Origin: Obrimoposthia wandeli
Taxonomy: Eukaryota
Reading direction: 5' to 3'
DNA length: 64,000 nt
Assembly (NCBI GenBank): GCA_977020255.1
Contig: CDROCS010003826.1
Span: 1 to 64,000, forward strand
This document shows positions 1,401 through 38,100 of the stretch, in pieces. The notes beneath the pieces were generated by a model. It made no database searches and was not told the DNA's origin. It worked only from the letters and a program-made list of their open reading frames with translations. A program made the translations under genes and the position numbers. How positions within the stretch are numbered: position 1 is the first letter of the stretch; every line of letters starts with the position of its first letter.

Positions 1401-1440
1401 TTTCTATAAACAAACCTGCTTAAACTCTATTATTGTTTCA

Positions 1441-2000: not shown

Positions 2001-2094
2001 GTACATAAACAATTATTTCAAATATCAGCTAAATATATGGGTGCTAACCCTTCTTTACCCAAATTTAAATTTTCTATATATTCAAATTGTTGTA

Positions 2095-3128: not shown

Positions 3129-3135
3129 TTTGTAT

Positions 3136-9319: not shown

Positions 9320-9320
9320 A

Positions 9321-9689
9321 ATGAAGTAAGACATTTTTTAAATTTATATTTATTAATTTTTATTTAGTTCAGCACAAGTTCAAGAATCAGCAGAGAAAGT
9401 CTTGGGTGATAAATTCAATGGAGGTTATCTTATTGATATGATTCCATTTTTTCAATCTGGAGGTTACATTATCAATACTCATACTTCGAATTTACCAGGA
9501 GAACATTGGATAGCTATTTATGTTAGAGAGTGGACAATACATGTATTTGTTCCACTTGCAATGTATTATCCTCACAAACATGTCTCGACTATTCAAAAAG
9601 GAAGAAGAAGAGTATTTTACCTGCGACGAGATACTGTGGACAGTTATGTATTTTATGGTTATCGTTACAAAACGATTAGTGTGTTATAA
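9321..9689 (+). pseudogene. Adenovirus-type cysteine maturation protease with a 42-nt intron (9326-9367)
   Basis: Spliced ATGAA/TTCA gives MNSAQVQESAEKVLGDKF..YIINTHTSNLPGEHWIAIY. The catalytic YCGQLC segment is in a shifted frame. Confidence 0.85.
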
Positions 9690-9919
9690 AAAATAAATAT
9701 TTTTAATGTTTTATTTTGAATTATTTTTTCAAATCCATAAAAAATATAAGGGTAAAATAATAAAAGACATAAGACGAATTTTTTTAATACATTTATTAAA
9801 AACAACATCACAATGAGATCTTTCAGCAAAGATAAGGTCCATCCTAAAAAATGTATTGAAATAACAAAAAGTTAGAGTCAAGGTGCCATAGGGATATAAA
9901 ATTTTAAAAAACTAATTTT

Positions 9920-12900: not shown

Positions 12901-14110
12901 TGATTTTAAAAGACTTTCCATATTTAAATTTACACCTACGTATAATAAAATTTCCTTTCCTAATGGCACCTTAACTATAACATATTTATTATTTAGGTGA
13001 TACTCTTTAGTAGTACTGTTTTTCCTACGTTTTGTGGTGGGACCTTATTAAGAAATTGGCCTCGCCTCTTTCTTTCTACAGTCGCTGACAAACCTCCCCT
13101 TATTGAATGGGAAGACAACTATTTATATTAACAGTTGATGCTGGTACTGCTGATGTTGAGGCAATTGCAACTGATGGCACAGTGGCACTTGTAGATGCTG
13201 CATTTGCGGTTGGAGTAGATGAGGTAGTAGCTAACATTGCCGACTAAGAAGCAGCTGTTGTAGAGATTGATGGTGCATCTGCTGAAATAAATATATTAAA
13301 CAATATATATATATTTTAAAGTATTACCTCTAAGTCGTGCAAACATCGATGTAGGCACTCGCGATGGGGGAGGCATAGATGTCGTAGCGGATGACGGCTG
13401 TATCAAGATATTTCATGAATAAAAAATAAAATATATAAAATTACAATTTTAAAAATAGTCAGAAAATAGTAATAAAAAAAAAACCTAATGAAGGCAATCC
13501 CACTGTAGCTGTTTGAAAGTCCTCTTCATTGACGGAATCCATTCAGCTTTCGTCCGTTAAATCGATGAAATCGGATTCCTCGATGGTCTCCAACCATCCG
13601 TTGTCGATCCATTGAGGCTGCTCCATCTCGAAATCTGACTGGGTGATATTTTCCATCCAGCCATTGTTCGAGAATTGGGTTGCTGGCGCCAACTCCTCAA
13701 AATCTTCTTGGGAGATGTCGTTCATCCACTCATTGTTAGTCATTTGAGTGGATGAGACATCTGCAGAATCAGGAGACGGGAGAGAAGGACCAATGCAGGA
13801 CCATAAACTGGTAGACTGACTGCCACTGTAATTGGAGCAGGAGCGACCTGCGAATCGCGCACCAATTGGACGATAGCCCTCTTCTTGTTGTTGGCCGTGA
13901 AACAGGACAGGTGATCTCGATGTTCACCGAAGAAGTCTCGAAACTCCTTCTCCTCCATAGTTCTGCAGAAGGGCAGACGAAGAATACTTATACTTTTTGC
14001 CATCCATTTCATCTAAAACATAAAAAAATCCATTTTAAATATCAAATTATATTTAATTGTATCGAAAATACATATTTCACAAAAAGCTTTATGTCCTTCT
14101 TTCTATTTTA
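9920..14110 (-). pseudogene. Protein-primed DNA polymerase B (pPolB) of Maverick A, with intron-containing N-terminal extension
   Basis: GIRGGMTFV, YIDINNLYG, KLKSNSLFGK, AGDTDSF, KFKDE motifs (9920-11041). RDHDHVTG..ACNLCN zinc/endonuclease-VII-like motif (11610-11876). YIPSP..NIQNSDNLCFLYSV..HY segment (12125-12661). Confidence 0.95.
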
Positions 14111-15144
14111 ATAAATACAAATAATTAGTTAGATATAAATTTGTAAATTTTTTCTTATAATCTAAACTCCTAAACGGGTTATCTACATGAAATAGGAAAT
14201 GCACAGGATGAAAAACGTCGCATATATTCATAATACATAGTTTTTTATAATATAATCTTCATTTTTGTTAATGAAAGCCTCAAAATTTATGACATATTCT
14301 TGCATAATTACCCAAATATGTAGCAAATCCCTTTGTTTATAACGAATAAAAAAACCAATTATCAAAAATTTATTAAAATAACAAAGTACTATGATTGTGC
14401 ACGTCCATGGAATCAGTGTTTGATTTATCGATTTGCTGCATTTCCTAAATAGCTCTCTTGATAAACTCGTAATTTACCTGGATGTTATTCCACTTGCGCA
14501 TTCTGTCTTCTCATCGCAACTCGTCTCCTGGTAAGGCATATTCCTGTATGATATGGCCACTTCAGAGACTGCTCTCCAGTCAATCGCAAGTCTCCCGCCT
14601 AAATGGAGTGAAGCTAATGAAGATGAACAAGCACTGGAGGTTTGGGACGAGGACTGCTGTACTTATCTTTGGAATTACATGATCCTGTACCTGAAGATCA
14701 ACGTATACATCCTTTCCTATGTTTTTCCAACATTCCAAAAGAAGGCCATCGCCGAAGATTCACTGGTAAATTTTATTAGTGAATTCAAATTTTAGTAATC
14801 ATTTTCAGTAATCGATTTTCTGTAATATTCTGTAAAACAAATTTAAATCTTTAATCTATTTTTTTCCCAGGATTATCATTCGCGAGCGCTCTCAAGTCTC
14901 TGCTTCCTTCTACTTCATCGCTGCATGAGATCATAGTGAAACTAGTTCAAGATCCAGAGATGTACTCCCTGTTTCGCGAAGGGATCAGAGGAGGAATGAA
15001 AATTTGTCAATAAGCACAAGGTTGATGCAGTGAATGGTTGTGAGCTTTTGTACATTTATGTGAAGAATTTTTATGGGTCGGCCATGTCCCAATATTTACC
15101 TTGTGGTGATTTTAAGTGAGTAACTGACCAGTTAGAGTTATAGG

Positions 15145-15964
15145 CAGTGGTGGGATTCAAACTGTTTAGCAACCGGTTCGCTCATTTACCGGTTGATGTG
15201 GAATTAAATCAATTTTTCCGTGTGTGGTTAATAATAAACAAGTTCAATTAATCATTTTATTTACCATCATATTCCAAATATTTCCAGATTGATAATTCAT
15301 TAGAATTATAAGAACTATTAGATGAATGCTTCACTCTTTTATCATCAGCTGTGTGGTGTTTTCTTAGCCACGTTTTAACAGAATCCATAGAATCCCATAA
15401 ATTAAGAGGAAGACCAATTAACTTTATTACCATAAGATTTGCGACATTTTGAACTTCAAGACGATTCCTTTTATCGCTATATATCACTTTCATAACTGAA
15501 AATCCGCGTTCCGCTTCAGCAGAACTCAAAGCAATTGTATTAATAATATTTTTTGCTTTTTGTATTGTAGAAGGAACATCTTGATTGGGACGGTTTTCTA
15601 TAACATTTTCTACATAGTCACGGAAATCGTTAACGCATATTTTATGGTGAAACTGCTTATAGAATCCGGCTCGGATCTGATTTTTTTATGTTTAAATATT
15701 AATATATTGTAGTTAAATGTTTGCTGAATTTTAATAATAGTTTCGAAATTTTGACTTTCCCATTAATATTAATATAAGAATAAATAAGAATAAATAATGC
15801 GTTCAATCAACGAATTAAAAAATTATATCTTTTTTATCCAGATGATTATGTACGTTTCAGTCGAAGAAGGTAGTCCAGAAACCGGTTCAGGCGGTTCTGC
15901 GAACTTTTATATTTTTAGGAACCGGTTCGCGCGAACCGGTGCGAACCCTTGAATCCCACCACTG
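15145..15964 (-). mobile_element. Non-autonomous hAT deletion derivative (ZNF862/KIAA1586-like transposase C-terminus), 820 bp
   Basis: TIR CAGTGGTGGGATTCAA at both ends. 8-bp TSD GTTATAGG at 15137-15144 and 15965-15972. ORF 15257-15529 has SSAEAERGFS. Confidence 0.93.
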
Positions 15965-18354
15965 GTTATAGGTTAAAATTTTTGAGCTCTCATTTAAGGA
16001 TTTAAGTTGTAGTAACTTTGGTCCTTGGATGGAGGTGGACTTATCTATTCCTAAAGAGTTGCATAATAAACTAGACGATATCCCTTAACCCCGCAAAAGG
16101 AATCCACTATTGGTAGTAAACAACCAAAACTACTTCTGACTCATTACCCTAGCATTATATTTTGCATTTCAGATTGCATCAATTGTACATAAGACTTGGT
16201 ACGAAAGTAGATTATGTACATAGAGCAATACGGTTTGCATAAACTAATGTTTTTGCAAAGTATAATGAGGATAATTAATGAGGAAATTATTAATGAGGAA
16301 TTATTATTGAGAAAAATTATTTCGAGCGGTAATATTATAAATTGAAGTTTAATTCTCTATTTGGTAAGTTAATCAAGAAAGTAGGTACTTTGATGGAGTC
16401 TAGACCACTGGAGGGGTGAGGGGGTCTCCCCTTGTGTGCGCACACCAAGTTAAAGGGTATCACACCATACGGATGTCACACCATAAGGGTGTCACACCAT
16501 AAGAGTATATGTTGCCTCACCATAGGGTGTCTTGCTACACCATAAAGGGTATGGCTCAGAAAGGTTATGAAGGTTTGAAGGTATGCTCGTGACCGTCTAT
16601 GGTCGGCCAACATACCCAAGGGGTTGTGGTCGTTCATAAATCAAAGGGTCGGGCTAAAGACAAAATCAAGTTTTAAATATCAAGGTTTTAGTACATGGTT
16701 GGAATCATCTTTAGAAGACAAATTCATACATATAGGTATGGTCGTCCATAGATGAAGGGAATAAAAATTGGAATTTCGTAGTTTCAAGTACATGGTTGTA
16801 TTTGTCAACATATTACGAGTGTAATCATGTAAAATTTTTATGGTTAAGGGTCAGATTTGGAACAAACATAATAATTTTATTAGATGGTTGTATTTATCTA
16901 TGAAAATTGAGTTCAAATATACCCTTAAGGTCCATGCATACTTTAAAAAGTCGTTGTGAAAAAAAATAAAATTCCTTGTAATTTTAAAAAATAATATATA
17001 TTTTTAAATTTAAATTTGTGACAACTTTTTATGGTTTCTATTGATTTAAATAAACAAATTTTACTTTAACGGGTTTTTTAAAATATTAAAGTAACATTAT
17101 TTAAAATAACTATTAAGGAAAATGTTAATAAACTCAAATTACTTTACTAACAGTATTATTATTATTATTATTTTTTCAAAAATATTTAAATTTACGCAAA
17201 TTTTTATCCATTTTATTAATGAAATAACAATTCCTGGTGGAAAAAATAAAAAATACTTGTAATTTTGTTTTCTTCAAAATAATAATTTAAATTTAAATTT
17301 GAGCTAATTTAATTTGTTAGATATTAATAAAGTTAAACAAATTTTAATTTAACAAGTTTTTAAATAAAATATAAAAGTACCAACACATCTATCAATCAAT
17401 TATTCTTTGTGAAAGTTAACTCTTACCAATTAATGAATGTATTACGTATTAATACACACACTATTCTATATGAAAATTTAGATCCAAGTTTTTCCCAGGC
17501 TTATGCATCTAAAGAATTATGGTAAAATTTCTTTAAATAACTTAAATTATATGTAATGCATACTTTAAGGGATCCTAGTAAAAAATAAAAATACTTTAAA
17601 ATTTAAATTTGTGCCAAATTTTTTATTGTTTTTTTGATTTAATTAAACAAATTTGATTTTAAACATAATGTTAATTATAAAATAATTAATAATTTGATAA
17701 ATATTCATCTTACTGACGATGAAAGAACTTTTACTATTTGAAAGAATACATTTAATAGTACTTTATATTTGAAATTTATATTATATGCAGTGGGCGGAAT
17801 ACAGCTACTAACTTTATAATTAAAATATTTTTATAGTTTAAAAATAAAAGCACTTGATAAAATGCCACAATAATGTGGTAAAGAAATATTATTTACATAT
17901 AAAATGAATTTTTGAAGAAATAATTGAATATTCATATTATATTAATAAAACAATGGCAAAAAAATATCAAGTAATTAAAAAATAAAATTGTTTGTTGAGT
18001 TAATTTACCAAATTTGTATATAAATATATTTTCGAATAGTTAAAAAGAGAAACGAATAATGATAATTTCAATTATATTTACGAATATAATTTTAAAATCA
18101 AGTTATTTAAAAATAAAGAATTTAAATTTCTCTAATTATTTTAAAATATTTCAATTAAGGAATGTTATCAAACGAGATAAGACATTTTAATTATTTAATT
18201 GCATGAGTGTGTATGAAAGGTTAACTTTAACATGGAGGTAAACTATGTGAAAATATGAAAGTTCACATCTTAATTATTATCACTTCATCAGGTTGTTACA
18301 TCATCTTCATTGATTGATAGTATTAATTTAATAATTAGCTAGTACTCACTTGCA

Positions 18355-19260
18355 GTTTAAGATTCACTTGCAAAGATTCTTACTTGTATTTGCATTCATA
18401 TTTGCATTCATTTACATCCATACTTGCATTCACTTGCATTCATTCTAACTCTCATATATTCAAACTAGCATTCAAATTCATTAATATATTTACTAATTTT
18501 CATTCATAATTGAGCTTCGTACTTGCAATCGTATTCTTTCTTACTTGTACTTGTAGCTGCATTCAATCATACTTGCATTCATTTACATTCAATCTAACTG
18601 TAATTTATTTAAACTATCATTCAATTACATTCAAATACATTAATATTTTACTAATTTTCATTCATACCTTCAAACTTAGTGTTGTTTTCTATTAATCTTA
18701 CTGTAACTTAGTCGTTCTAACTTTTAACATACTTCAGTATCACTGATTCTTATAGTTGCTTATTTGTTATTAATCTAACTGTAACTTAACATAACTTTAT
18801 TCATACGAAAACTCTATTTTAATTTACTTATAATTTAAATTACACTCGCATTCAATCAAACTATCGACACTCTTATTATTTTTTTTACAGTTACATTCAC
18901 TTGCTAAGACTCTTGCTTGTATTTGCATTCATACTTGCATTCATTTACAATCATTCTAAGTATCATTCAAATACATTAATATTTTACTAATTTTCACTCA
19001 TATCGTCAAACATAGTATTGTTTTCTATTAATCTTGCTGTAACTTAGTCATTTTAACTTTTAACATAACTCAGTATCACTGCATTTTATAGTTGCTTACG
19101 AAAACTCTATTTTAATTTACTTATAGTCTAAATAACACTTTCATTAAATCATACTCTCGACAATCTTATTTTTCAATTACATTCACTTGCTAAGACTCTT
19201 ACTTGTATTGACATTCATACTAGCATTCACTTGTATTCATACTTGTATTAATTCATACAA
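18355..19260. repeat. Imperfect direct repeats rich in CTTGCATTCA inside the foldback element
   Basis: ATTCACTTGC(A/T)AAGA(T/C)TCTT block recurs near 18362, 18895 and 19180 with shared downstream sequence. Confidence 0.75.
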
Positions 19261-19855
19261 TCGATAATTAATTTTATATGTTTTTTACAAGACATTTTAA
19301 TTATTTTAGAAAGTCGAATAATAAATAGAAATACTAAGTTGATAATCGAATATATACATAATTTGATTTATTTACATATAAAACAATATTATTAAAGATT
19401 TGATATTCGAATTTATAGACGAAGCTTTCAGTAGCTTTGAATAACATGTGTTTTCAAATGAATTTTCAATATTCGATACAAATTTTAAAAAATGAAGTTA
19501 TTTTTTAATGTGTTAAAGATATTTTCGAATATTTATAGTGTAAATCGAATAATGTTAATACTCAAATTATATAAATAAACATTTCTTTGACCAAGTTCTT
19601 TAAAATAAAGAATTCAAATTTATCAGTTTAAATAAAAATCAATTAAGGAATGTTATAAGATAAGGAATTTTAAATTATTTATCTGTGTGTGAATTGATCA
19701 TTATAACATGTGAAAGTTATGTGAGAGATAACACACACATGAAAATTTACATATTAATTAATATAATATGAACATATTATTAATGTTATTCATTGGTTGC
19801 TAGTATTAATTTGAAAATTACAAATTAATAATAGCAAATGATTTCTCTTTATATA

Positions 19856-19860
<5 letters not shown>

Positions 19861-19904
<44 letters not shown>
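19861..19904. repeat. (AT)n microsatellite
   Basis: Uninterrupted AT dinucleotide run. Confidence 0.95.
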
Positions 19905-19907
<3 letters not shown>

Positions 19908-22900
19908 TTTGCTTTATAATTCTTATATTTTTAATATATTCATCATTATTTTAGGCATAAATTACAATCATAAAATAATGCAATTTTAAAATTAATATAT
20001 ATTTAAGATATTTAACTTAGAGTTATAATAATAAATAGGTTTGTATATACATTTGTTTAAATACATCAAAAGTGACAATATAAAATATCGCAGGAATTTA
20101 AAAATATGCTAGAATTTATCATTTTACAGACTTTTATCAAAATTTAAGTTATTAAAATCTAAAGGGGGTGTATAAAGTGTTTAAAGCATAAATTGTAACA
20201 ACAACAAAAGTTCAAGTGAGTTAATATCTTGAATTATTCTATCATTTTAAAATTTGTATTTTAGTAGTTATTAGTTGAACTTGAAGTATTGTTTTTTAAA
20301 TAAATTATTTATATTTAAAAAATATCAAATAGTACTTCTTAATATGAATTTCTTTGCGTTTGAAACTATTTTAGTCATTATTTTAATACAATAATTATAA
20401 ACAAGAAAAACGTGCAATTTTTAAATTTTAATATAATAAATTTGTATTTATTTTCTAAAGTTACAGTCAGATTATAGAATAATGATAATAGGCTGTCGGA
20501 CATACATCAATGGATTCGATAAATAACTTGTGGTAAGATGAATATTTATCAAATTAATAATTATTTTATAATTAACATTATGTTTAAAATCAAATTTGTT
20601 TAATTAAATCAAAGAAACAATAAAATATTTGGCACAAATTTAAATTGTAAAGTATTTTTATTTTTTACTAGGATCCCTTAAAGTATGCATTACATATAAT
20701 TTAAGTTATTTAAAGAAATTTTACCATAATTCTTTAGATGCATAAGCCTGGGAAAAACTTAGATCTAAATTTTCACATAGAATAGTGTGTATTTTAATAC
20801 GTAATACATTCATTAATTGATAAGAGTTAACTTTCACATAGAATAATTGATTGATAGATGTGTTGGTACTTTTATATTTTGTTTAAGGAATTGTTTAATT
20901 ACATTAATAAAATGGATAAAAATTTGCGTAAATTTAAATATTTATGAAAAAATAATAATAATAATACTGTTAGTAAAGTAATTTGAGTTTATTAACATTT
21001 TCCTTAATATTTATTTTTAATAATGTTACTTTAATATTTTAAAAAACCCGTTAAATTAAAATTTGTTTAGTTAAATCAATAGAAACCATAAATATATTAT
21101 TTTTTAAAATTACAAGGAATTTTATTTTTTTTTCACAATGACCTCTTAAAGTATGTATTTTAAAGTAAGGGTATATTTGAACTCAATATTCATAGACAAA
21201 TACAACCATGTAATAAAATTATCATGTTTGTTCTAAATCTGACCCTTAACTTGTGGACGACCATAAAAAATTTACATGATTACACTCGTAATATGTTGAC
21301 AAATACAACCATGTACTTGAAACTATGAAATTTCAAATTTTTTTACCCTTCATCTATGGACGACCATACCTATATGTATGAATTTGTCTTCTAAAGATGA
21401 TTACAACCATGTATTCAAACCTTGACATTTAAAACTGGATTTTGTCTTTAGCCCGACCCTTTGATGTATGGACAACCATACTTTATGGGTGAATTCACCT
21501 TCTAAAGATGATTCCAACCATGTACTAAAACCTTGATATTTAAAACTTAATTTTGTTTTTAGCCCGACCCTTGATTTATGGACGTCCATGACCCTTTAGA
21601 TGTGATGGCCAACCATAGTTGACCTCAATTATACCTTCAAACATTCAAGTCAAAACTGACCACGACCCTTTCATCTATGGTCGGTCACAACCCTTTAGAT
21701 GTGTTGGTCAACTATAGATGGTCATGGTCATACCTTCAAACCTTCAAGTCCAATCTGAGTTCGACCCTTTCACCTATGGACGACCACAACCCCTTGGGTA
21801 TGTTGGCCGACCATAGATGGTCATGACCATACCTTTAAACCTTCAAGTCAAAACTGATCCCGACCCTTTGATTTATGGACGACCACAACCCCTTGGGTAT
21901 GTTGGCCGACCATAGACGGTCACGAGCATATCTTCAAACCTTCATAACCTTTCTGAGCCAGACCCTTTATGGTGTGGCAAGACACCCCTATGGTGAGGCA
22001 ACATATACCCTTATGGTGTGACATCCCTATGGTGTGACACCCTTTAACTTGGTGTGCGCTCACAAGGGGGGACCCCCCAGTTGTCTAGACTCCATCAAAG
22101 TACTTACTCAAGAATTTAATGAAGATAATTAACCTCCGTATTTGTAATACGCCACAAAAGCTTGTTACCTAGTGTAGTAAGGCCCAATTCCGTAGGACGA
22201 TGGAAATCGACACTAACGTAATAGCTATTTTACTAAATATGCAAACTTTCGTTTTAGATCGTCCTAGTTATATTGGTCAGGCAGTTCGGGATTAAGGTAA
22301 TTTAAGGATGTATGAGCTTCAATATGTTCAATTAGAGAATTATAGATGTCAGTTTAATTGTGACATTCAAATAATTGCTGGTTAAACTGATAGCTTTTTT
22401 CTAAAGTGTGATAATGTAGATGTGCAAGCTACACTGCTGTCAGCAATGATTTCGGATGAGTTATTTGACATATCGAAATTCCCTATAAACCATCCTTTAT
22501 TTACTTTAGTCAATACTGCAATAGGAAAGTTTAAGAATGAGAGAAAGCGTGTCTGTAGATATAAGCAATGGGTATTTTATAAACCAAATCATAAAGCTTA
22601 GAAACTATAGAAGGAAAGTCCCAGATGAGAGTAAAAGAAATTAGCCTTAAGCAGACTGCGCTACACCATACAAATTATGTAGCTGCATATAAGAGTTAGT
22701 TAACAAGTGCTACAACAACGCATTAATTAAATAAATCACCACCTATATACCGTTAATATGAGTAAAATCGCATTGAGTAGCAACGACGATAACAGAAAAT
22801 GGGTAGAGAAAAACCGGTCAGTTGCCTACACACAGCACTGATATCTTAAAGTTTTTTTACTTGAATGATTGTTTTTGTATGTTTAAATTTATGTCACAAA

Positions 22901-23769
22901 TTTATTGCACCTATTTTTTTCTCTTTGGTTTAAAAAATATTTGATTCCAATTTGTCTGTCTTTTTGATGAGTCTTTTCCGTAATATTTCTAAGTCAACAT
23001 TTATAAAACATTTCTTGTAGTGAAAATATTTTTAAATATCTAAAGTAAAATATTTATAAAAATGTTTCTTTGTTTAAAAATATTTCGAAAAAAAAAATCT
23101 AACAAAGAAACGTTCTTTAGGTGTCATAAAAATTAGGAGTTCGCAATTTGTATAAAAATTATGAATTGAATTCTACATATAAAAGTAATTTCATTATCTG
23201 CTAGTTTTCAGTATAAAAAAAGTTATCGAAAGAAATATTTATGTGATAAATGTATAAATGTGTTTAAATATATTAAATTATAGAAATACTAAGGTGATTA
23301 TATGAATAAATACCAAATAAAAATTATTTTAATGAAATATTAAATTGTTATTGGTTTAAAATAAAACATTACCAAATTCCTATTGGATTTTAAAATTCGC
23401 AACACTATTTCAACTAGTGCGCTTAAATTTTTGGATTTAAATTATTTCAATTAAACCAAATCATAAAATTTATTTTAGAAAAATTTAATACATATAACTT
23501 TTTTATTATAAATAAATAGCAGCTAAAACTACATTTTTAATATTGCAATGTATTATGTTCATCATATACTAAAATTTCACTGAATTCTTTTTATGACCGT
23601 GCGAAACGTTTCCTTGTAAGGTAAAAAATTTCTTTGTAAAATTTTATTTCTTATGTCTAAAAAAAAATGTAAAAATTTCTACATAAAATTTTAATATTTG
23701 AAATTCTTTAAAAATGTATATTTATTTTTTTAATTCACTCGAAAAATTGAATATTAAAACAAAATCATA

Positions 23770-25050
23770 GTTACGGCATGTGCTGCAGTTGTCACGGCAA
23801 CATACATCTCTTGTTGCTGGGTCTTTTGGCTCACTTTTCTTCGCGGATGGGAGCCAGAAGTCTCACTTACCCATTCATTCTTGTAGTTCATATGGGCGAT
23901 GTCTTCATTATCACGTTTATGTTACTTAATATGTGTTGGGACCAGAGTTGTATCACTTCTTAGGTAAGCCTCTGGTGAGTGAGTTCTTAAGAGTAACAGG
24001 ACTTGTATGACCGGCCTATCCTTAATTGTCTTAAATTTTACTGTGATAATTTCTGAAGGTTATTTCGTGTACTGGGATAACTTTGATTGTGTTAAAAAAC
24101 GAATATTAACTTATGGCGTCCGTTCTCTTATTTATGTGATCTGCATTTAATTCTAGATACTTTTCTAAAAAATGTGTTTACACAGAAGATTTGCAATCTA
24201 TTAAACATATGTGAATCCGAATCGAGTCACTTTTACAATATCATTTTGATGTTTAATACAGTTACCAAAATCAATTTATGTAAACTTTAAAACAAAACAC
24301 TTTATCACCCGTTCACAATTAAAGATAAATAAATAACGTACACGTTAATAGATAAATAAGTACAACAAAATTAAACGTATAAGTCGATTTTTATTCCTAC
24401 TCCTCCTGACGGGGATTTAAGATTAAAAAAGGCTAGAGCCGTAATAGGTTGTAGAATTTATCAAGATATCCAAAACGGGGTATCGCTAGTGGTCAGTAAT
24501 ATACAATATTGTAAACTAAGTATTTTAGGTTATCGATTTATCAATTTTTTTCAGTTTAACAAATGATCTCAAGCGCCTTGTGCTGCTGCGTCCCAGGTCC
24601 GACTAAGAGGAACATTGAGGTTGTTATTGTCCATCGGAGTTTGATTCGGATTTTTCGGCCTTGAAAAATCTTCTGAGGTCTATCTTTTCGTCTTTGCTTC
24701 TACTTTTATACCCTTCTTTCTTGTCTCTTGATGATTTTCATGATCAACCATTAATCGTGAATTTCCAACTTCTGCTGCCTCAAGTAACTATGTTTACTCC
24801 TTACATGTGTGTTTACTTATTTTGCCTCCTCCACAGAACAATTTTTTTAGACTCTTCTACCTCAGGTTACACCATTAGTATTATGGTTAGAGGCCATCTG
24901 AGGTTAATAAGCTCCTCCATTTTCGATAATTAATTCTCGATTTTGCTTATTTCACCTATTTTGATTTTAACTAAATTTTAATTTCCAGGATTACTAAAGC
25001 CAATTATTTGAATTAAATCGTCCATTCCTGGACCTTAACAAATGAATAAA
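23770..25050 (-). mobile_element. Possible highly decayed non-LTR retrotransposon remnant (ORF1 knuckle and endonuclease start)
   Basis: Eroded Cys/His-like segment near 24830-24900 and an SGGVGI motif near 24400; stops in all frames. Confidence 0.3.
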
Positions 25051-25676
25051 GTTTTATAATTTGTACGGCTTTCAAATTGCAGTTTTGATTTTTCAAACAT
25101 AGATGTCGAATTTTTATATTTTTACTGCATCGCTAATAGCATGGTTTCTCAATTTGCAAAATGTTATATTTTTATGAAAATATATATTAAAAAATTTATA
25201 ACTATTATTGTTTGTAAAACAGAAAATATTTTTTCTTTTTGACAAAATCATAAAAATTAATCTACTAATTTCTATTTGAAGAATCGTAATTTGTGCACAG
25301 TTCTTTTTCTATGCATACTTAGTGGATTTATTACTATTTCGGTTGATTTATATAAAAATTATTTGTTGAATTTATCTTTACAACTTGAATTCTATTTTAG
25401 AATAATTTAACAAAATTTTCTCAATATTTGAAGAGATATTAACATACTTTAAACAAATTTTAATACTTAACATTCTTTTACAGATTATTAAATGTTTTCA
25501 TATCAATATATATATATTTATATTAGAAACTGGATAAGTTCTATATTGATATTCCCTGTAAATTTACATAAAGTTGATACAACAAAATTTAGAAAAATGA
25601 GCTTACAGAGAAGATTGATGAAGAAATGTGTATATATTGCAGCAAGAGACAAGAGGGAGAGAAGGATACACAGCAT

Positions 25677-26159
25677 TCAGTTGTACTTGGTGGTGTATGT
25701 GGGCGGCGCAGTCTGGGGATCGTGGGAGTGGGAGATCATGAGAGAGGGAGAGAAGTGGGGCTGGACTGCAGCAGTCTGCGGTGGCGGCTGGTGGGGTCTG
25801 TGCTGCTGCTGGTTGATGATGTAGCCAGGTGGTGGCTGTGGTGTCTGCTGGTTGATGGAGATTAAGCGATGCTGTTGCTGCTGGGGCGTGGCGGCCGTCA
25901 GCATGGTCACATTGCCCGCAGAGTTGGCAGGTCCAGAGTATAAATACTGGGGCTGTTGCTGTTGTCGGTGACCTCCCAGTCTGATGACCGAGCCCTGGTC
26001 CGTCTCACCAGAGCCTCCGTGATGATAGCCACCCCCACTGCCCCCCACGAACTGTACCGACTGATAGCCAGGCCGCTGGGAAGCTGCTCCATACAGTTCC
26101 GCCTGGGGCTCTCCCGCGCTTTCAACGATGATCTTCTGACCCGGCACACCCTCATACAT
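25677..26159 (-). CDS. KMT2C: KMT2C/D exon 22 (last exon visible; in-frame TGA at 25677-25679)
   Basis: GTGCAG acceptor, phase 0. Only weak donor candidates before the stop, so terminal status is unproven. Confidence 0.75.
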   Translation of the reverse strand: MYEGVPGQKIIVESAGEPQAELYGAASQRPGYQSVQFVGGSGGGYHHGGSGETDQGSVIRLGGHRQQQQPQYLYSGPANSAGNVTMLTAATPQQQQHRLISINQQTPQPPPGYIINQQQHRPHQPPPQTAAVQPHFSPSLMISHSHDPQTAPPTYTTKYN

Positions 26160-29100
26160 CTGCACCGATAGCATCACAATTAGACGACTTTACCAAACCA
26201 TGGTGCTATAACGTGATTGAAGAATTCAACATATATGTAAATGGCGCTTTAATGAGGTGCATATTATTCTAAAACAGTTTTTAAGTAATGCGCATAAATA
26301 GTCGTCTTTTCGAGGCGGACACTTTAACAATTTTCATGACAGTCTTAAATAACTTTTAGATTAAAGGTTATACTTAAACGTTTCAATTGAAAACGGTTTC
26401 TGTGAATTTCTCGCTTTGAGACTCATTAAAGGTTTTAAGCCCATAAATACTGTTTCCAAAACCTAGGGGTTGCAAAACGTTTTCCTCCTTTATTGTGCTT
26501 ATCGGTGCACGGTGCCAACTCAGACAAAATCGTTATCCAAAATCTCACTGAATGACAAGCTAAATTCACCTCGGTCACGTTGGCGGCTTTCAGATTCAAA
26601 TATGAAGCACCAAAAACGAGTTATGAACTATTTCTTTACTTTCCTCAAAAGTAGATATTATTTCACAAGATCATTGGATATGAATGCAAAGAAGTTGAGT
26701 ATTTGGGAAAAAAACTATTTAAATTTTCAAAACTCAGATTGCCTCATATACGGTAGCAGAATGGAGGGCATTAAGGTACAACTCCCATTGATGATTCTCT
26801 TCTTGACATTATCGAAATAGTAAAAATGTCTGGCGATTAAAGATATTCCAGATAATATCGAGGAAGAAGTGACCAAAAGGCTTTCCAAATTGTCCAAACC
26901 ACGAATATTAGCCGTAAAGCACATTTAAAATTATTATAGAGAAAGAAACAGTGAACAAATATTTTTTCTTAGGTCAAACCTAGAGGGAAATGGCGTGGGG
27001 GGGACTTTGTGTATACATTTGTGCAGATAGCGCTCTATCAGTGGTGCGTTGTTAAGGACGGGTTGTCCTTGCCAAAACAAGAACCCTAAACACCAACTAT
27101 CCGCACAGCTTTCTAGATGGAGAGTCCTGGTTGCAGAAACACCGGTTGCTTCAATAAAACCCGCTTTGGACCAAGTTCAGAACATAGTAAATTACACCAA
27201 TTACCTTTCAGAACATAGTTTTAACAACCTTCTATATCCATGGAGGCTCAGTAGGAATGTTTGTTTTTATACAGTGTAGTAAAACGGTTGTCGGCGGTAA
27301 AGTGTTCAATCGGAGTTTGGAACTGAAAAATGAATGATTGGCATCTTTCTTTTATACCGAAATGAAAATATTTTTGTGAAAAATCTTAGGAATGATATTT
27401 GTTGTGATAAAATTGAATACAGTAAAGTTGACTTTCAAGGGACGAAACATTTTAGAATTTCTCTAGTTAGAGGACAAATCAAAAAAGTCAAGTAAACACT
27501 GTGTAGTGTCATGATAGTTGGTGCAGGAATGTAATGTGTAAGTCGGGTTGTCGACTCACTAACCTGGTATACGTGGTGGCCTTGCTGTATGAACTTCGGG
27601 TGGCCGCCCAAGGAAGGCTGCACGGAGATGAGCTGCTGTTGCTGCTGTTGGCTCTTGTGCGGTTGGCTAGGCGCCGCGGACGACGCGATCCAGAGGTTGG
27701 GCGTCCCGGGGGACCGCTGTGCCGGACCAAGGTGCATGACTGCCTGCGCCTGCTGCTGCTGATGACTGAGCTGTGGCGGTGGCTGCATCACGCGCTTCTC
27801 CTCCTCCTCCATGTACACCTCATCCATGCCACTGTACTGCTGTTGTCCGCGGTACGAATCATCCATCAACATGTACTGCTGAGGCTGTCTCTGTTGCTGC
27901 TGGTAGTTCTCCGGACCAGACACTGGAAACAATTTGAATATTCACCATGGACAATGTAAAATAAGATCACTATACATCAGCCAAGCACTAACCACACTTA
28001 CGATACTAGATGGAGATCGTAAAATCCAAATTATGTCCTCATTTAATATTAGATCCGCCATCAACTTCAATAAATACATCCCCAACTCCCATTGAGAAAG
28101 CATAATATAAATTTAAATGCAAATCGATAAATATCTTTTCAAATAAATAAATTTGCATTAAAAATACATTAAAACAACTAGAAAATTATTTGAGTATTAA
28201 TATCTTTAAAATTATTTTATAAAAATTGAACAAAAGGTCATTTCAAGTTGTCAACATAATTTACAATAAAATATCAAATAAATAAATTAATTTATAAAAT
28301 CAAATTTGTATAAGATAAAACTATTTCAAGTAAAATAGCAACAGCTAAGGGGAAGTAGGGAGCTTCAAAGCTTTCTGGAATTCAAATTTTAGGATATTGT
28401 TGGCCTTTTGCAAAAGATATCATTTAGTAGAAATATGAAATAATATATGCGAAATTGCTACTAAGGTTACACTGAGAAAACACTTTTGAAATATAATGGT
28501 AAATTTTACGATATGTAACTTTTTACAGGAGCTTGTCTTTGTAACTATTTTTCAAGAAATTTCCATTACCATTTCATCTCATTTTTGTTTAATTTTCCTT
28601 AAGATATAAATGATAAAATATCGTGTTATTTCTGTAAACGCCAGTAATTGCATGGTTAAAAGATACGAGGTGTCTTTGAAATGGCAACGATTAGCAACCA
28701 TAGTGAATACCTGTGGAATCGCTGATAACAATGGAAAAGTACAGTTTAATAAACCCAGTGAAATGCCACTTCATTGGATTTTCCATTTCACAGTAAACCG
28801 TGCAATGAAACAAATTAACCAATTTCTGGGATTTATTCAATAGTAAGCATGATGTTTACCTTTTTTAGATCAGCTTCACATTAGTTTCCTAAAGTAATAT
28901 TTAAACAAACTGAGCTGAGGTGTTTATGAGTAGAAGATCGTGTTATGTGTCAAATATTCGACGGGAAATAGCAAGACCTTGAGACTCCTGGAAATTCAGT
29001 GTTGTTTGGGTTGTCATCTGTGCTAAATGCCTAATTAGATCTATGTTATCCAAACCACAGAATCGTTACTCTTTACTACTGAAATTGCTACATTTTATTA

Positions 29101-32100
29101 TTTGTAAACCTTTCTCCACACAGGACGACTTCAACTTGCTTCTGTACATATCAAAGGAATCTAAACAATTAAATAACGCATTTCTTGCATTTTGAAAATT
29201 TTCTTCGAACTCTTTTACTTTACTTTTGTAAATTTTTTCCTCCAATATTTTGTTTTGGGTCTGTTTTCCTTTTTTCTTTTATATACAAAAAATATCTCAA
29301 ATCTTTAGATATTTTGTTAAAACATAAAATAAAATTCCAAATTTAACTTCTAGAGTACATATAAGAAATTGGACAGAATAATGGTAACGTAACATGGATG
29401 CAGCTTTAAATGCACCTCACCGCTCCACACTGCCTGCTTGGTTTTAACACATTTCCCTCTCTAACCTCACATCAGTGTGATTGTTTTGCAATGGCATCAT
29501 TCCGCCTGACTCATCTGATGATGAGACTTTGCAGTGTGCAGGTGCTGCCGATTTTAAGAATGCAGATGGGAAAATTGGTGGATATGAAAAGGTAAATTAT
29601 GGACTGCTATTTGTAAAGCCTTTGCATCATTTACTCCAAAGATTATATAATCATTAACTTCTCTGAATTTTTAATGATCATTCTAGGAAAAATGAGTTAA
29701 ATTGGAGAATGAAAATTTTGTATTCTATATGAAAAATAATGTTTCTTTCTTATTTCTTGGGATCCGTTTTAAACTAAAAATAACCTACGATTTCTGATTT
29801 CCAGGTATCCTTGAAAATATAAATCTCACCTCCCCACAAATATCAACCCATTAAATATTTTATTATTCAAATTCCGCTCGAGAAGCTTTGTTTATAACCA
29901 TAGTGAAATATTTAAATTGAGCACATTTAAATGTTAAGAATTTTTTTCGATTCTTTTAAACACTGATAAAAAAATTAAACTATTATTCAAAATGAACGAG
30001 CCTGCCAGGCACATACACCACAGATTGAAAAGCATATTAATTGTATTTAACATTGAGACAATTGCAACTTTGGAAAAGATTAGAAAAATTCAGATTTAAA
30101 TCCGTAAAACCCAATGGCAAAATTAACGGCATTACTAAGAAGACGCACGAGTTGATTGTACGCTACGAAATAAAAATGAAATCATAGTACAATGTTATTA
30201 TTACTGCGACTAGCCCTTCCAAACTAAATTAAATTATGTACTGAGGTCTTTTCGTCGTATATATAAAATTGCAGAATATATTTTTCTGTTTTTCAACTCT
30301 CATGAAAATATCGAGTAATTATTTTAAATATATAAGGTCAAGCATTTTCTAAAACTATTTAAAAAAACACAATTCTACAAAAGGACCTTCTGTTGTTGCC
30401 GGATAGATTATATGAACATATTTTGTTTGCTCGTACAAACGCAACGACACAATTTGGGAACACGCCGAGTGACTGTGGTGCTTTCATTGATTGGCAGATG
30501 CGTAGTGCACTGTTTGGCGCTTTGTATCGTTCCCCAAATTTATGTTACACCTCAACCGTGTTATAATCGACAAACAAGACCAGCTCACCACACATAAGTT
30601 ATTCCCTTCACATTTATTCAACTCTTTAGTGAGATTTCTTAACATGTGTTGATTGTAAATGACAAATGTTTTGGTACGCCCATGCTACTTAAATAGAGAA
30701 AAATAATGACGGATACATAAATTGTCATTCGTAATTTGCTCAACTGCACCCATTTTCCCGGAAATGAACATGAAATATAACAAGTGGGTATGCATAAAAC
30801 TGTGCGCATCCAGGTTGCATCTGAGTTATCAAATGACCCAGAAGCTATAACGCGGTAGCCGACATATGGACCACTAGAGCCACTAGAGCGTCTAAGTGCA
30901 GTGAGCGACTACAAGAAATAAAGACACGGCACAGCAGCCCAAGTTGAGCGAGTTAATATTAGTAAAGCGCTGGCGAAAAGGAAAAGAATATATATATTAC
31001 TGACAGTCAAAATCGATGCCTCTGAAACGGGGGGGTCAAAAACTGTTAAGGGAGAAAACCAACGCGAAAAAGATCGGTTTAAAATACATCGCTTACTTAA
31101 TTAGACAGCGCCATATTTATATGTATTGAGAATGAATATATAAAAGTCGTATCAAAATGTTCATGGACACATCCTAAAATCTAATCGTTCAAGTTCGGTA
31201 CATTTACGGAAAATGATTAAACATAGGGTTCTTAATCGCCAGAGAAAACAAATGCCATTGTCAAGATTCAAATATTTTGGGGTGAAATTTAACAAAAACT
31301 GCAAATAATTAATTAGCTAGAATATTTGGAGATCTGTATTTTTACTTTGATAATTTATTACAGTAGATTTCGATTAAACGAAATTCAGCTATAACGAAGT
31401 AATTTAGACGGTCCCTTGAAAATTAAAAATAAAATTGTATTAAATTATGGCTACAGCGAATAATTTTTGTTGTTGCAAATTTAATTTTGTAATAGTCAGA
31501 TTTTAAAATGGTAAATTATTTTAATGTGGCAAAAAACGATTTCAATTGGTTTAAATATAAGAAAATTATGATAATTTTAAATTAAATATTTAAACGACAT
31601 CAATTTATCAAAATGCTCGAGTGCATAATTTAAAACGAACAATTGTTACGCTCCAACAGAAGGTCTAAATATTTAAAGCTGTCGACCGTGCTAGGACCCA
31701 TTGCAAGAAATTGAAGATAGCTGAAGAGTTTGGTTTACCAACCTCAACATTATCCATGATTATTAGAAATAAAGAAAGCATCATAGCAAAGTTCAAATAT
31801 GGCAACACTTCAACATCAATCAAGCGATTTCGTGCTCCTATTGCTAAAGCCGTAGACCAGTCGCTATTGACATGATTTGGTGCAAGAGCTTCTCATTTAT
31901 GCATAACGGAGTTATGCTGCAAAGAAAGGTGAAGGAATTCGCTGGTGAGGTTGGCTTTTCACAGGGGATTTGTACCACCACTACGATCAGAAAGGTGCAG
32001 GAATTCGCTGGTGAGGTTGGCCTTTCACAGGGGATTTGTACCATCACTACGATCACAAAGGTGCAGGAATTCGCTGGTGAGGTTGGCCTTTCACAGGGGA

Positions 32101-35100
32101 TTTGTACCATCACTACGATCAGAAAAAACTCGTAATGTCATCGTTCTCTGGCAACTTCATCCTATCAATATGAATTCCAGAACACAGCATTCCCCAAACT
32201 TCCTGAGAACTTGTCCGCCAAAAGCCTTTGCAACATTTTGTTTGAGAAGGTGGAAGAGACCTAAGACGACTGGTGTGAGTAAAGTGGTTGTTTCGTCAGA
32301 CTGCATTTCGTGGCATTCTAAGCCATAAAATCGTGGTCATCGTGTCAAAGCAGCGGTCAAAAATTAGAAAACAAACTATTGACTCAATCCTTAAATAATA
32401 CAATATTAACTGATACACTTTGTTAATTTTCTGATAAGGAAATATTTTTCAATGGTTCGCTGAAAACCGTTAAAAGGGAAATCTACTTTACTTGCTATTT
32501 ATCAGCTCCCTGTTTTAAATACTTTATATTCACCGAACACTTTATATGCCTGACTATGTTCAAAGAGTACTTTCCAGATTATGTATGAAGTTAGAGTTAT
32601 TTACCTAATTTTAGGATCTAGAAGTCGAAAATGTGTAAATAAAATATGAAATAGATTTAGCTGTATGTCTACTTTGGATTTGAATAAATTTGATTATTTT
32701 ACATTGGTTTATATCAAAAATCCACCTGGAAGATTTATGAAGTACAAGGATCTTTTTATTGTTCATAGACTAAAACAACCTTGTGAAACGTATAAAACTG
32801 TGGAAGTGTGTGTGGAAATGCAATGAAATATAATGTTGTAGTATAAAATATTGGAAACATGTCGACATGAGAACTGAAGGTGGACATTGAGATGGCGTCT
32901 ACAGATGCTTGACAGGGGACTCACACAATCCGGCAGGACTGTTGTGGACTGATGAGTTTGAGGCTGCAGGTGTTGTAGCCGCTGTCATATACGGTGATGC
33001 AGGCGGGTCCACCTCAGCTTGCTGTTGAGATTGTTGCTGTTGTTGAATTTGCTGTTGTTGTTGAATTTGCTGCTGCTGTTGCTGCTGTTGCTGCTGTTGT
33101 TGTTGCTGTTGTTGCTGCTGTTGTTGTTGCTGCTGAACTTGATGATGCTGCTGAAGCTGTTGTTGAGACTGCTGGGGCTGAGGCTGATGGTGTATTTGTT
33201 GCTGCTGCTGGGTCTGGTGGTGCTGCTGGAGTTGTGGGGACTGTGATTGAAGTTGCTGGTGCTGTTGTGATTGAAGTTGCTGCTGCTGGAGCTGTTGGAG
33301 CTGTTGCTGCTGCTGTTGTTGGAGCTGATGATGAGCCGGCGGTCGGTACTGACTAGAGGTTGTGGGCAACTCCTGCTTACGATCGACATTGACGCGCGTA
33401 ATGATCACCGGTGGCTCAAACATCTCCTCCTTGGGCAGGAGTCCCCCTAATGGCGTGTTACTGCTGCCAGTACTGCCCGTAGCCACCGCAGATTGAGATG
33501 ACTGCTTCTGGAAATGACCATAGTCCATAGTCGGCTGCTGCGTCTGTATGAGAAGATAATTTGGTCAACTAGCAAATCAGACAGAATAATCAGTCAAATA
33601 CGTGCTTAGATTAAATCTTTTGCTAAAGAACTTTGTTCCGCATATCTTTCTCCGCACAAGTCCTGATATGATGAATGAAAAATTATTTGACAAAGTTATT
33701 TATTAAACGTTAAGTTTTACGAAGCTGAAGGGTCATTCTTTGATAACTCCAAATCGGACACCTGTTGTTCACTGTGGCATATCTATCGAGCAATTCGTAA
33801 CATTAAATGGTTACTTGTCTTTCTTGTAATAACACTAGACAAGCATTGTTAAAAGAGTTAGTAGAGCAACTGTGTTGAGTGGATTTATTGCTGCATGCAT
33901 GCTAATGCTTGATCATAAGAAACAAGTCATTTCTGTTTGGGCGTTTGTAAATCCCCAGTGAATCTATTTAATTCTGGTCACACAGTCGACGCTTGTCAGT
34001 GTCTTGAAACTGACTTGTGCAAGTTTCTGTGTAGACGTGTGAAAGTGCTACCAAAGCTGACGTTGGTTTCATGTATGGCGTAATAGTGTATGGATGTTGA
34101 ACAATTAGCATTGAGAGAATTGCACTGGCGCAAATATAACTCACAAAATTTAACGAGCAGTTATCAGTAGAAAATTTGATGATTTCAATTGACGGATTGT
34201 AATCACTGCGGTTAATTGTTGTCAGTGTATTACGTAATCAAATGAATTCGGCGTAATTTTGCTCGCTGAAAAAATGATCTCTACGAAGCGTTGTACATTT
34301 ATCTATCCCATTTTTACAAAATGAAGCTAGGCACAAACTCAGTATGCAAATGCAACAGTATCGGACGATCATAACGCAGTGTACTCATTTTTGTTGAATC
34401 ATCATCTGAGATTAATGGTGTCGTTGAACACAGTTGCCACTCTTCATAATCCGAACCTTCGTGACTTTGAGTACGCATTGTGTCTTGACATGGTTTATCG
34501 ATTTGATTATACGCACTACTGTATACTTAAAACTATCTAAAGCAAATGACTCGCTCAATTGCCAACTAACCGACTTGGAGAACGCTGCAAGAGATGTATA
34601 ACTGGACTCCACTATGTTGCTTTAGTATCGACAAATGTCATGTTCATTTTCCGCACAATGGTTAGCGTATTTAGTACTTTGTGCGCATCTTCCATCCTTT
34701 ATCTCTTTGATATTAAATGTGCAGAGCGTTTCATGTTGTGATAGATTATTGAATTTCGTTGTAACAGAGTAATTCATTTTGAAATAGAAACTAAGAATTT
34801 ATAAATAACATATAATGTTAAAATTTTGATGATAAAATAGCAGATTTATAAGTTGAGAGTTGCAATATTTCTTCAACAGAGCTCGAAAACTTTAAATTGC
34901 ATTTCTTTTTATACTAATAGTTTTGGGTTAGCCTAATCTGTACTGGCCACGTTTACAGCGTCCGACAATTTTCCTGTGTTGATGAGATTGATGCATTGAA
35001 AAAGTGATTAAAATTAAGAAAGACGAATATAATATTAAAAAAGCTACGTAACAATTTTTACAGGAAATTTACTAAAATGTATTAAAAACTTCAAATCTTA

Positions 35101-38100
35101 TTTATCAAGTGACTAAAGATAGATTAAGTAAGAAAATCTAGAATTAGACCATGTGACAAGTGGCGGGTGAGAGTGAGAGCAGGCTGTGTCTCACCGGAGA
35201 AGGGCTGGGGTGACGCAGAACGGGCGAGACTACCATCTGCGAGACGGGGCTGTATCTGGGCGCGATGGCCGCTTTGTTGGAGCCACCGGGTGACATGGGT
35301 GTGGTGCGGGCTGCCGCCTGCTGGCACTGTGGGCTCTGTGGCGTGGAAGGTGCCGTGCTGGTAGCACCAGGCTTACCAAGGGGACTCGGCTGGAATCGGT
35401 GCTGCTGCTGTTGGTAAACCACAGGCGACACTGGTGACACCCGGGCCGCTTCTGGTTGGCTGCCAACTGTCTCTTCTGGCTGCTGCTGCATCATGTGCGG
35501 GTGATGGTAGGCTTGCTGTGGCTGCGGGGGCAAGTAGCGTGGGTGGTAATAGGGCTGTTGGGGCTGCTGGGGCCTCGTCAGGCGGTGTTGTTGCTGCTGC
35601 TGGGAGACCGGGTCTATGATGATGTAACCGTGTGGTGTCCCACTGTACTTGTAGAGCTGGTCCGACTGCAAAGGTGCTTGGCCAGGCAAGTAGGTGGCCC
35701 AAGTTGTTGTGGATTGTGGTGGAGGCGGCGGTTGTTGCTGCTGGTAATAATGCTGCTGCTGTTGTTGTGGCTGCTGCTGACGAGGAATATCTTCTGGTTG
35801 AGTAGGCAGCGGCGGGTCACTGGTAGAAGGCTGCTCTACAGAGATTGGCTTGTTGCTACTAGCGGCCGCTCTCCGAGACAGCATGTCACGCAACTTGGTG
35901 TTGCTGTCCTGTTGCTGCAACGGTGGCCAGATGGGCGGCGGCCGCGGAGGAGGTAGGTATTCGCTTCCTGAGACTGCCCCTACTGCTGATGCCACCGACA
36001 CAACAGGTTCCTGTGGGCGCATCAGCATCATCATGCGCGGACTGTCCATCTGGGCCTGTGACTGTGGCGATTCCACGGAGCCACGGCCCAACGACATCGG
36101 TGGCGACTGAAGAGGACTGGCTACAAACGGACTGGTTACCATACCCTGCTGCTGCTGTTGACTACGAGATGCAAACTGTTGTTGTTGCTGCTGCTGCTGA
36201 GCCAGACAATCTCCCATGGGGGACTGCTGCATGAACTTGGGCCCACCACTCCCTACCACAAGGTTGCCACTCGATACTGTCTCGACAGGCTTCTTCTTGA
36301 GGGAGGATCACATCAATGGCACCTCACATACAATCACAATACAGACACAAGCAATGTCCATTCATACACAACACAAACCGTGTCATCTCTTATACAACAC
36401 AGACACAAGATGAAATATATTTTACTGATCTTTTCTAAACTACGCTAGTGATTTTAATCAATAACACTCAATATAGTAAACCTCATATACATATTCAATC
36501 TCAATTACAGTAGCGTACTCTAGAAACATGTTACATGAACCCTATAATAAAATAATTAACCTAACTGTACATCATGTATATGTTCATACACACAATTTAA
36601 GCGCAACTTTTCTATGACTAAGATTTATGTATGTCCGGCAACCTCAGAAAACATGAAATATTTACCCAATGACCAATCATCAAAATACAATTTGACGTAA
36701 GCCATTCACGCACAATACAGTGTATTTGTATATTTCTAACAAACACAGACGTCATGTTGAAAATTCTTCAACCCACAGTAGCAAATTAAAAATATAGTTG
36801 AAAGTTTGAGTACACATGTAAAACTTGAACCCAATTTCCTATCTCTAAATATAATCGTCTTTCTGGATCTCACCTTTTTTGATGATCCAGAGGTGCCAGG
36901 GTTGACAGTAGTGGATTTCTTATTGGACTTGTTCATTCGAGACTTGTTCTGAAACGGGATGTGGGAAAGTAGATAGCGCAGCATACTTATATTTATCGAC
37001 GTATAGAATAGTTAAATAAACATTTTGACAAGGCTACAAATAGCTTAAATTGGAAATTTTGGACGAGAAAAGCGGTGATGGGGTATAGGGAGGACGCACC
37101 ACCCACTGCTGCCGCTCGTCGGAGTTGAGCTTGCGCCAGAGCTTCTGAATCTCGCGAGAGCGGACCTGAATTTCAGGGAACTGTGTGGGCAGCTCGGGGT
37201 GCCTGGAGTTAGAGAAGAGAACAGGGGCGATGGTGGCTCTATCCCCGAGCTGCTCATCTTCCTGCCACTTGATGAGGTTGATGCGCTTGCTGGCCACAGC
37301 ACCAGAGGAGCCCGCTCCAACGGCAGATGGGGTCGCGGCGGTGCTGGATGCGGCTACTACTGAGGCTTGTTGCTGTAGCTGCGCTGCTGCCACAACCTGG
37401 GACTGAGGCGTGTCGGGGGTTGCTAGCGACATGCAGCTCCCTGAGTCTGGAGACAACATGCCATCGCCGGGGCGACCACGAATGGGGCTCTCGAATCGTT
37501 GTTGGGGACTCAAGTGCACCATTATCTGACCGCCCGGTGCACCAGTCCCAGCCACAGCTGCACATATACACGCTCAATTAGGGCTCGTTTCTCCAGTCTC
37601 GTCATAAACGCATCTACTACCTACCTTATAATTATTCAACTGATTGGCAATATATGGATTATATATCCGTATATCATAAACTTAACTAACATGAGAAGTT
37701 ATTGAAAATAGAAATCACAGATTTCATTAATATTAAAAAATATATTCTAAACATGGTAGACAATTCCCCTCTCCATATTAATTATTTTCATACTTATTTA
37801 TTTGTTTAAGTTACAATTTTAGCAAATGTCATCTCAATGTTTGAAATAAAAATGATTAACATCAAAATTATTTCAACCTCTAATATTTGAGAGTTTATAC
37901 ATATTTTCAAATTTACTTAACATAAAAGAAACTTCATTAAGTTGATTTATTTTCATTTTGAAATTATTTTTTATTTATTTATGAAACCCATAGCAACTTA
38001 ACATCTAAACAATATCATCGTATGGTAGACTCTTAGTTAAGTGTCGGAAAAATATTCATTTTTTTAACAAACTTATAAAATAAAATAACAAATAATAATT

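Follow-up and report, generated by a model that had tools for sequence, protein, structure and literature searches.

An expressed Lpt-like N-terminal half of MLL3/4 in Obrimoposthia wandeli and its split arrangement in common with flukes and tapeworms

The window, a 64-kb stretch of Obrimoposthia wandeli DNA (64,000 nt), held a gene on the minus strand whose 23 coding exons joined into a single open reading frame (ORF) of 8268 nt (2755 aa), running from an ATG at 54919 to a TGA at 25679–25677, with its sole stop at the end (Table 1). In the exon model, which was read on the minus strand with splice sites listed by coordinate, all 22 introns were GT-AG with matching phases, and the largest measured 5002 nt. 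The junctions between exons 21 and 22 and between exons 22 and 23 were covered by a spliced contig, the other 20 being predicted, and the acceptors of exons 2 and 20 had in-frame alternatives a few bases away. The GC3 of exon 1 contrasted with values of 0.52–0.78 in the other 22 exons, a sharp step within one gene, and the O. wandeli introns were AT-rich. Intron 21 contained three tandem copies of a 66-bp unit (31923–32125, 96% alike). Upstream of the gene, nested retrotransposon integrase fragments occupied 55999–62274, with rve and H2C2 matches at 59950–60600 and 58185–58685.

Table 1. Features of the O. wandeli Lpt locus (positions in the window)
Feature	Position	Strand	Basis
Lpt gene (N-terminal half of MLL3/4)	25677..54919	−	Phase-consistent GT-AG model; domains
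Lpt exons 1–6	54919-54408, 53172-52901, 52591-52417, 51740-51575, 51474-51325, 51070-50771	−	
Lpt exons 7–12	50684-50112, 47543-47454, 45649-45470, 44199-44029, 43893-43510, 43455-43391	−	
Lpt exons 13–18	43079-42949, 42890-42748, 42648-42046, 41852-41078, 40245-39760, 37557-37100	−	
Lpt exons 19–23	36948-36874, 36292-35195, 33543-32925, 27922-27564, 26159-25677	−	
Exon 1: start codon and first half of ePHD; GC 0.31, GC3 0.20	54408..54919	−	
Exons 2–6: rest of ePHD (zf-HC5HC2H) and PHD cluster a	50771..53172	−	PF13771 E 3.8e-8; PF00628 E 2.4e-11, 1.9e-11
Exons 9–11: PHD cluster b	43510..45649	−	Pfam
Exon 16: low-complexity linker with LPELxVxDIE (aa 1407)	41078..41852	−	Profile from three trematodes
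Exon 18: HMG-box-like domain	37100..37557	−	PF00505 E 0.022, below cut-off
Exon 21: polyQ tract and tail motif EExxFEPPVI (aa 2311)	32925..33543	−	Profile
Exon 22	27564..27922	−	Both ends spliced in X3 contig 19
Exon 23, terminal coding exon, stop 25679-25677	25677..26159	−	X3 contig 19, 26159 to 25643, no mismatch
Start of 3' UTR	25643..25676	−	X3 contig end
Mobile-element debris (Maverick-like, hAT, foldback-like, high-copy repeat), no SET half	1..25600	.	

A Pfam scan of 19 of the 23 exons (exons 8, 12, 14 and 19 being left out) returned zf-HC5HC2H, four PHD matches, three of them above the curated cut-off, and a weak HMG match; no FYRN, FYRC or SET was found in the exons scanned. The ePHD and PHD clusters a and b were homologous to those of MLL3/4, and cluster b was 57–64% identical to its neodermatan orthologues and 48–60% identical to the other animals tabulated. 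The HMG-box-like domain after cluster b fell below the Pfam cut-off, but its identity to orthologues was strong (46–59%, E-values 1e-14 to 1e-21; 57–59% over 63 aa for the trematodes). It was followed by a Q/P-rich tail of 877 aa, in which glutamine reached 23%, versus 8–12% in trematode and cestode proteins. The C-terminal ePHD-FYRN-FYRC-SET-postSET of full-length KMT2C/D, which would lie in the same ORF, was absent from the O. wandeli protein. These features supported the assignment of the gene as an Lpt-like N-terminal half of MLL3/4.

The SET half was sought by tblastn with 21 queries and by a profile over 3286 six-frame peptides. Neither approach detected SET-half sequence in 1–25676 (best E 0.37), no separate trr was found in the window, and the sole SET-half match within it was to the N-terminal ePHD of the gene itself, in exon 2. 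A control, a SET half that had been withheld from the profile, was recovered in 13 of 18, 9 of 11 and 6 of 7 pieces of 25, 40 and 60 aa, respectively, rates that overstate the sensitivity for a divergent flatworm SET because the control protein was a close relative of one training row. In the downstream DNA, integrase, double-jelly-roll-like and hAT matches occurred in three of ten ORFs (18 ORFs were scanned in all), and no 200-nt downstream window exceeded 51% GC. A previous sequence-only reading of this DNA had described 22 exons joining into one ORF that ended at the TGA at 25677, a largest internal intron of about 5 kb, no ePHD-FYRN-FYRC-SET region after the PHD/HMG half, and 25.6 kb of downstream transposon debris with no GC-rich exon. 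The ORF, its stop and the intron size held, the exon count was corrected to 23 (the former exon 22 being exon 23 here), and Pfam, tblastn and the profile agreed on the missing region. Both observations on the debris were likewise confirmed, but GC content was rejected as an exon criterion: the argument from the lack of a GC-rich exon is weak by itself, because the GC content of exons 1 and 19 is 31% and 41%, respectively.

The debris included broken Maverick/Polinton-like pieces at 2243–12733, with counterparts at 62906–63902. Among them were an integrase at 2243–2599 (+), a double-jelly-roll-like frame at 8693–9079 (+), and polymerase-B-like frames at 9920–11095 (−) and 63417–63902 (−), which were alike by eye, the latter having a weak Pfam match. 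A 5.7-kb non-coding foldback-like element (16380–22108) had inverted arms of about 1.3–1.6 kb that were 86–97% complementary and built from 99- and 111-bp subrepeats. The repeat at 22200–23800 reached a summed contig depth of 170,000–380,000, versus about 50 for single-copy sequence in run X1, and 22111–22828 was 70% like a polymerase-B remnant at 62940–63691.

Four sequencing runs, derived from one sample in one study and with the kind of data not on record, cover the locus; their contigs, which drop rare variants, were placed on 22200–31900, a stretch that does not include exon 21. In run X3, contig 19 (906 nt, depth 357, no mismatch) joined 30 nt of exon 21 to exons 22 and 23 in spliced form. 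Intron 22 (1404 nt, with proper ends) was removed in this run, its joint being present in one of the four runs and absent from the three unspliced ones, and an X3 loose end at 27922 corresponded to the last 30 nt of exon 21. Because of this joint and this exon end, X3 was taken as spliced material. Contig 19 passed unbroken through 26009, 25767, 25687 and the stop and ended at 25643, 34 nt past the stop, with no loose end there among the higher-ranked ones listed, a listing that stops above 645 loose ends and 24 joints of lower rank for the four runs. The X3 bin depths were fully accounted for by this contig alone. There was no X3 cover from 25642 to 23820, which, in one run of one study, is not proof of a 3' end. 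The contigs showed no poly(A) tail at the 3' end of the gene; the candidate polyA-like hexamers 3' of the gene were a weak AATATA from 25638 and a first canonical AATAAA at 25332. Overall, the dominant spliced contig ended the ORF before any FYRN-FYRC-SET, in a single sample in which rare isoforms are invisible.

Weak donors in the last exon had led the sequence-only reading to leave the end of the gene open, with a Maverick-filled intron of >25 kb as an alternative to a split. These donors scored −5.0 (25767) and 1.9 (25687), versus a leave-one-out median near 8 for the 22 model donors. Two of the 22 scored below the 25687 site (−2.6 and 0.9), and weak donors are therefore possible in this gene; a consensus-like donor at 26009, inside exon 23, scored 8.2. 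Since both weak donors and the stop lie within the spliced X3 contig, the question is closed for the dominant transcript, and a fused transcript formed via a giant intron is disfavoured as the main form. From exon 21, contig 19 takes in just 30 nt, a hint that the X3 transcripts fork after this exon: the contigs presumably come from a 31-mer assembly, in which a contig starting with exactly 30 nt of exon 21 would mean a fork. The simplest candidate for the second branch may be read-through into intron 21, within which weak X3 cover (depth 4–6) was present. Read-through of the exon 21 donor (32899–32924, −) would meet a stop after 8 codons and give a 2483-aa form ending about 170 aa past the tail motif, like the proteins of Dicrocoelium and Opisthorchis; alternative C-termini are also found in Heterobilharzia models.

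This fork, the blindness of contigs to rare forms, the high-scoring donor at 26009 and the end of the window before any next gene leave some room for a minor or exon-21-derived isoform that spans an intron of >25 kb to SET exons beyond position 1, with exon 23 as the main alternative end. We consider such an isoform highly improbable, as the sole X3 contig over exon 23 is continuous at all three donors, the longest intron in the model measures 5 kb, and all 12 named neodermatan orthologues described below lack SET and terminate shortly past the exon-21 motif, if not before it. At the DNA level, a 6605-nt X1 contig spans 24804–31406 and is extended to 23947 by two overlapping contigs, so that the sequence around the stop is not mis-joined. 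The DNA depth was near single-copy, and no listed variant touched the stop. Although a very high-copy repeat obscures contiguity beyond 23947, the depth, the contig bridging the stop and an open frame maintained over 23 exons with conserved domains make it extremely improbable that the gene is a truncated or decaying duplicate of a full-length MLL3/4 located elsewhere, or the product of an assembly mis-join after exon 23; moreover, the RNA ends the ORF at the stop, whatever lies downstream.

The best match to the protein was a 295-aa fragment (P0001; 66–75% identity), and a query from exon 11 against longer proteins gave one match among 390 candidates. The nearest named proteins (20 matches named) belonged to Dicrocoelium, Opisthorchis, Heterobilharzia, Cichlidogyrus, Mesocestoides, Fasciolopsis, and Schistosoma. 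In a quick IQ-TREE of PHD cluster b (111 rows, those covering <170 of the 205 query residues being left out), the O. wandeli protein grouped with P0001 (SH-aLRT 99), both grouped with ten neodermatan rows (94), and Macrostomum came next (94), values of 94 being below the star threshold of the quick tree. Orthologues were searched for with the Heterobilharzia region against proteins of 1704–5424 aa, and 120 of the 715 matches were listed. Among these, all 12 named flatworms (nine flukes and three tapeworms, 2413–3518 aa) lacked SET, FYRN, and FYRC; two of these models are flagged partial, one ends at the HMG box, and several are partial or machine-made. SET was likewise found in none of nine trematode and monogenean models that were rescanned, in agreement with the SET-half profile. 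No fused flatworm MLL3/4 was among the matches listed; the fused forms recovered came from an annelid, chelicerates, echinoderms, chordates, an acoel, and a nematomorph. The split cannot be dated from the Macrostomum models, which stop at the HMG box or shortly beyond it. The 120 SET-half matches listed, out of 834, included no flatworm Trr. Among the fluke and tapeworm records P0296–P0305 and P0159, several bear the name histone-lysine N-methyltransferase (2C, 2D, MLL3) but contain no SET, and no publication was found that calls these trematode and cestode proteins Lpt.

Motif profiles built from three trematodes were used to scan 410 proteins. The linker motif LPELxVxDIE (iE 4e-6 in O. wandeli) was present in all 12 named neodermatan long models and in the trematode-like P0304, with no named non-flatworm match among the 410 proteins. 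The tail motif EExxFEPPVI (iE 0.011) was present in 10 of the 12, three of them training sequences, with no non-flatworm match in the same set. Both motifs were colinear between the O. wandeli and trematode proteins. The distance from the tail motif to the C-terminus was 73–425 aa in nine species and 444 aa in O. wandeli, and reached 753 aa in a Clonorchis model with an additional cadherin match. Because this motif is colinear and near the C-terminus in both, the C-terminal end of the O. wandeli protein is homologous to the ends of its neodermatan orthologues. A 13-residue N-terminal peptide also starts three named trematode proteins and P0304 and no other of the 410 proteins, which supports the AT-rich exon 1 as the probable true start. 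The O. wandeli gene thus groups with the flatworm proteins and shares their private motifs.

The split is therefore an inherited arrangement, common to flukes and tapeworms and known from planarians, and not a new event in O. wandeli. Schmidtea mediterranea is reported to have Smed-LPT (KX681482) separate from Smed-trr-1 and trr-2 (PMC3549883; PMC6128892), a split in print since 2013. The suggestion in the sequence-only reading of a split particular to this lineage is not supported, given the 12 named fluke and tapeworm orthologues without the SET half, the flatworm grouping and the planarian LPT/trr split; its idea of convergence with Drosophila stands, for a split that is old and already known. 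A fission in the O. wandeli lineage apart from the neodermatan and planarian splits could be argued from the Q/P tail, which is almost unalignable to trematode tails save for one patch of 25–48 aa, from breakpoints that cannot be mapped exactly in low-complexity sequence, and from a comparison set without a named planarian sequence. However, that patch is the tail motif, which lies near the C-terminus in flukes, tapeworms and O. wandeli alike, the tails after the HMG box are similar in length (877 aa versus 874–1155 aa, the fused echinoderm protein having 3471 aa), and no fused flatworm protein was listed, so that we regard a separate fission as very unlikely indeed.

Among the known systems, Smed-LPT resembles the O. 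wandeli gene: in this flatworm, too, the N-terminal PHD half is expressed from a gene of its own that has no FYR/SET. It is described as having two PHD fingers and one PHD-like domain, whereas the O. wandeli protein has an ePHD, both clusters and an HMG box; as the comparison set included no named planarian sequence, we infer the orthology. The trematode and cestode 'KMT2C/MLL3' proteins (Dicrocoelium CAH8563642.1 and Heterobilharzia CAH8437839.1; Schistosoma, Taenia, and Rodentolepis) have the same architecture without SET at 2413–3518 aa, and have the N-terminal, linker and tail motifs in common with the O. wandeli protein. Fused MLL3/KMT2C and MLL4/KMT2D proteins (Owenia, 5342 aa; Anneissia, 4964 aa) are colinear over the ePHD, PHD clusters a and b and the HMG box, whereas the O. 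wandeli protein lacks their mid-protein conserved block, second ePHD, FYRN, FYRC, and SET. In Drosophila, the reader half Lpt/Cmi and the SET half Trr are likewise separate genes working in one complex, as described in the available text of PMC10570056, which covers the dipteran Lpt/trr split and reports that cluster b binds H3/H4 and cluster a the BAP1 complex; the available parts of PMC11161652 and PMC6318328 agree. The dipteran N-half (Teleopsis, 1525 aa) ends about 270–290 aa after the HMG match, versus about 880–1150 aa in flatworms, and has none of the flatworm motifs. Because fused forms occur in an annelid, chelicerate, nematomorph, acoel and deuterostomes, we infer from these sequences that the flatworm and dipteran splits are of independent origin.

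In the literature, the available parts of PMC7459852, PMC10658182 and PMC12153100 contained nothing on splits beyond planarians, and the words 'fission' and 'split' are absent from the main text of Mihaylova. The neodermatan-wide split, the mollusc split and the flatworm motifs were not found in the open full-text literature, a scope that largely leaves out subscription papers.

Taken together, the locus very probably represents a complete expressed flatworm Lpt gene, the non-catalytic half of MLL3/4 that serves as reader and scaffold, and goes back to a fission in an ancestral flatworm, independent of the one in dipterans. This fission would predate the parting of O. wandeli from flukes and tapeworms and is probably the same event as the planarian split. 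By analogy with Drosophila and planarian work, PHD cluster b, which reads histone tails in MLL3/4 and Cmi, would bind H3/H4 tails, cluster a would bind ASXL/BAP1, and the HMG box would contact DNA. Lpt would then join, in trans, a Trr encoded by its own gene (ePHD-FYRN-FYRC-SET) to form a COMPASS-like complex for H3K4 methylation at enhancers, and may target or stabilise this complex. That the lost covalent link was replaced by a tether consisting of one short flatworm-specific motif, most likely EExxFEPPVI, is a tentative proposal that we regard as rather unlikely.

Molluscs provided a further lead. All nine mollusc rows (two flagged partial) lacked SET among the 120 of 715 matches listed, and SET-only mollusc models of 2200–2650 aa were among the 120 of 834 SET-half matches listed. 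The split-looking mollusc models were P0306, P0309, P0310, P0316, P0322, P0328, and P0341, together with P0220, P0226, P0229, P0230, and P0241. The two Pinctada halves share a locus-tag prefix and are single-member records on differently sized contigs (64,212,256 and 65,244,353), and the two Dreissena halves list a same-sized contig. The SET-half search returns short proteins by design, vertebrate fragments included, and the mollusc, insect, rotifer and brachiopod SET-half rows alone therefore show no split. A conserved mid-protein block of 100 aa lay on the N-half in all eight mollusc models tested (four of them in the profile) and on the SET half in a Lingula model (also in the profile); with this profile, it was undetectable in 13 flatworm models, the O. 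wandeli protein and Teleopsis. The mollusc breakpoint would accordingly fall after the block, in a pattern that fits separate fissions and rests on database gene models. We see an even chance that MLL3/4 split at least three times in protostomes, at different points in dipterans, flatworms (the whole of Neodermata together with the O. wandeli lineage) and molluscs, and that the flatworm Lpt gained motifs, EExxFEPPVI among them, that may dock it onto Trr or COMPASS instead of the covalent link.

The O. wandeli gene adds one more flatworm Lpt, now with transcript support. Many fluke and tapeworm 'MLL3/KMT2C methyltransferases' lack SET and should be read as Lpt, which matters for the choice of drug targets. 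The flatworm motifs offer candidates that can be tested for keeping a detached reader half within COMPASS; how this is achieved is open in flies too. If MLL3/4 was indeed split repeatedly at different points, the reading and methylating halves of a major tumour suppressor would need no covalent link.
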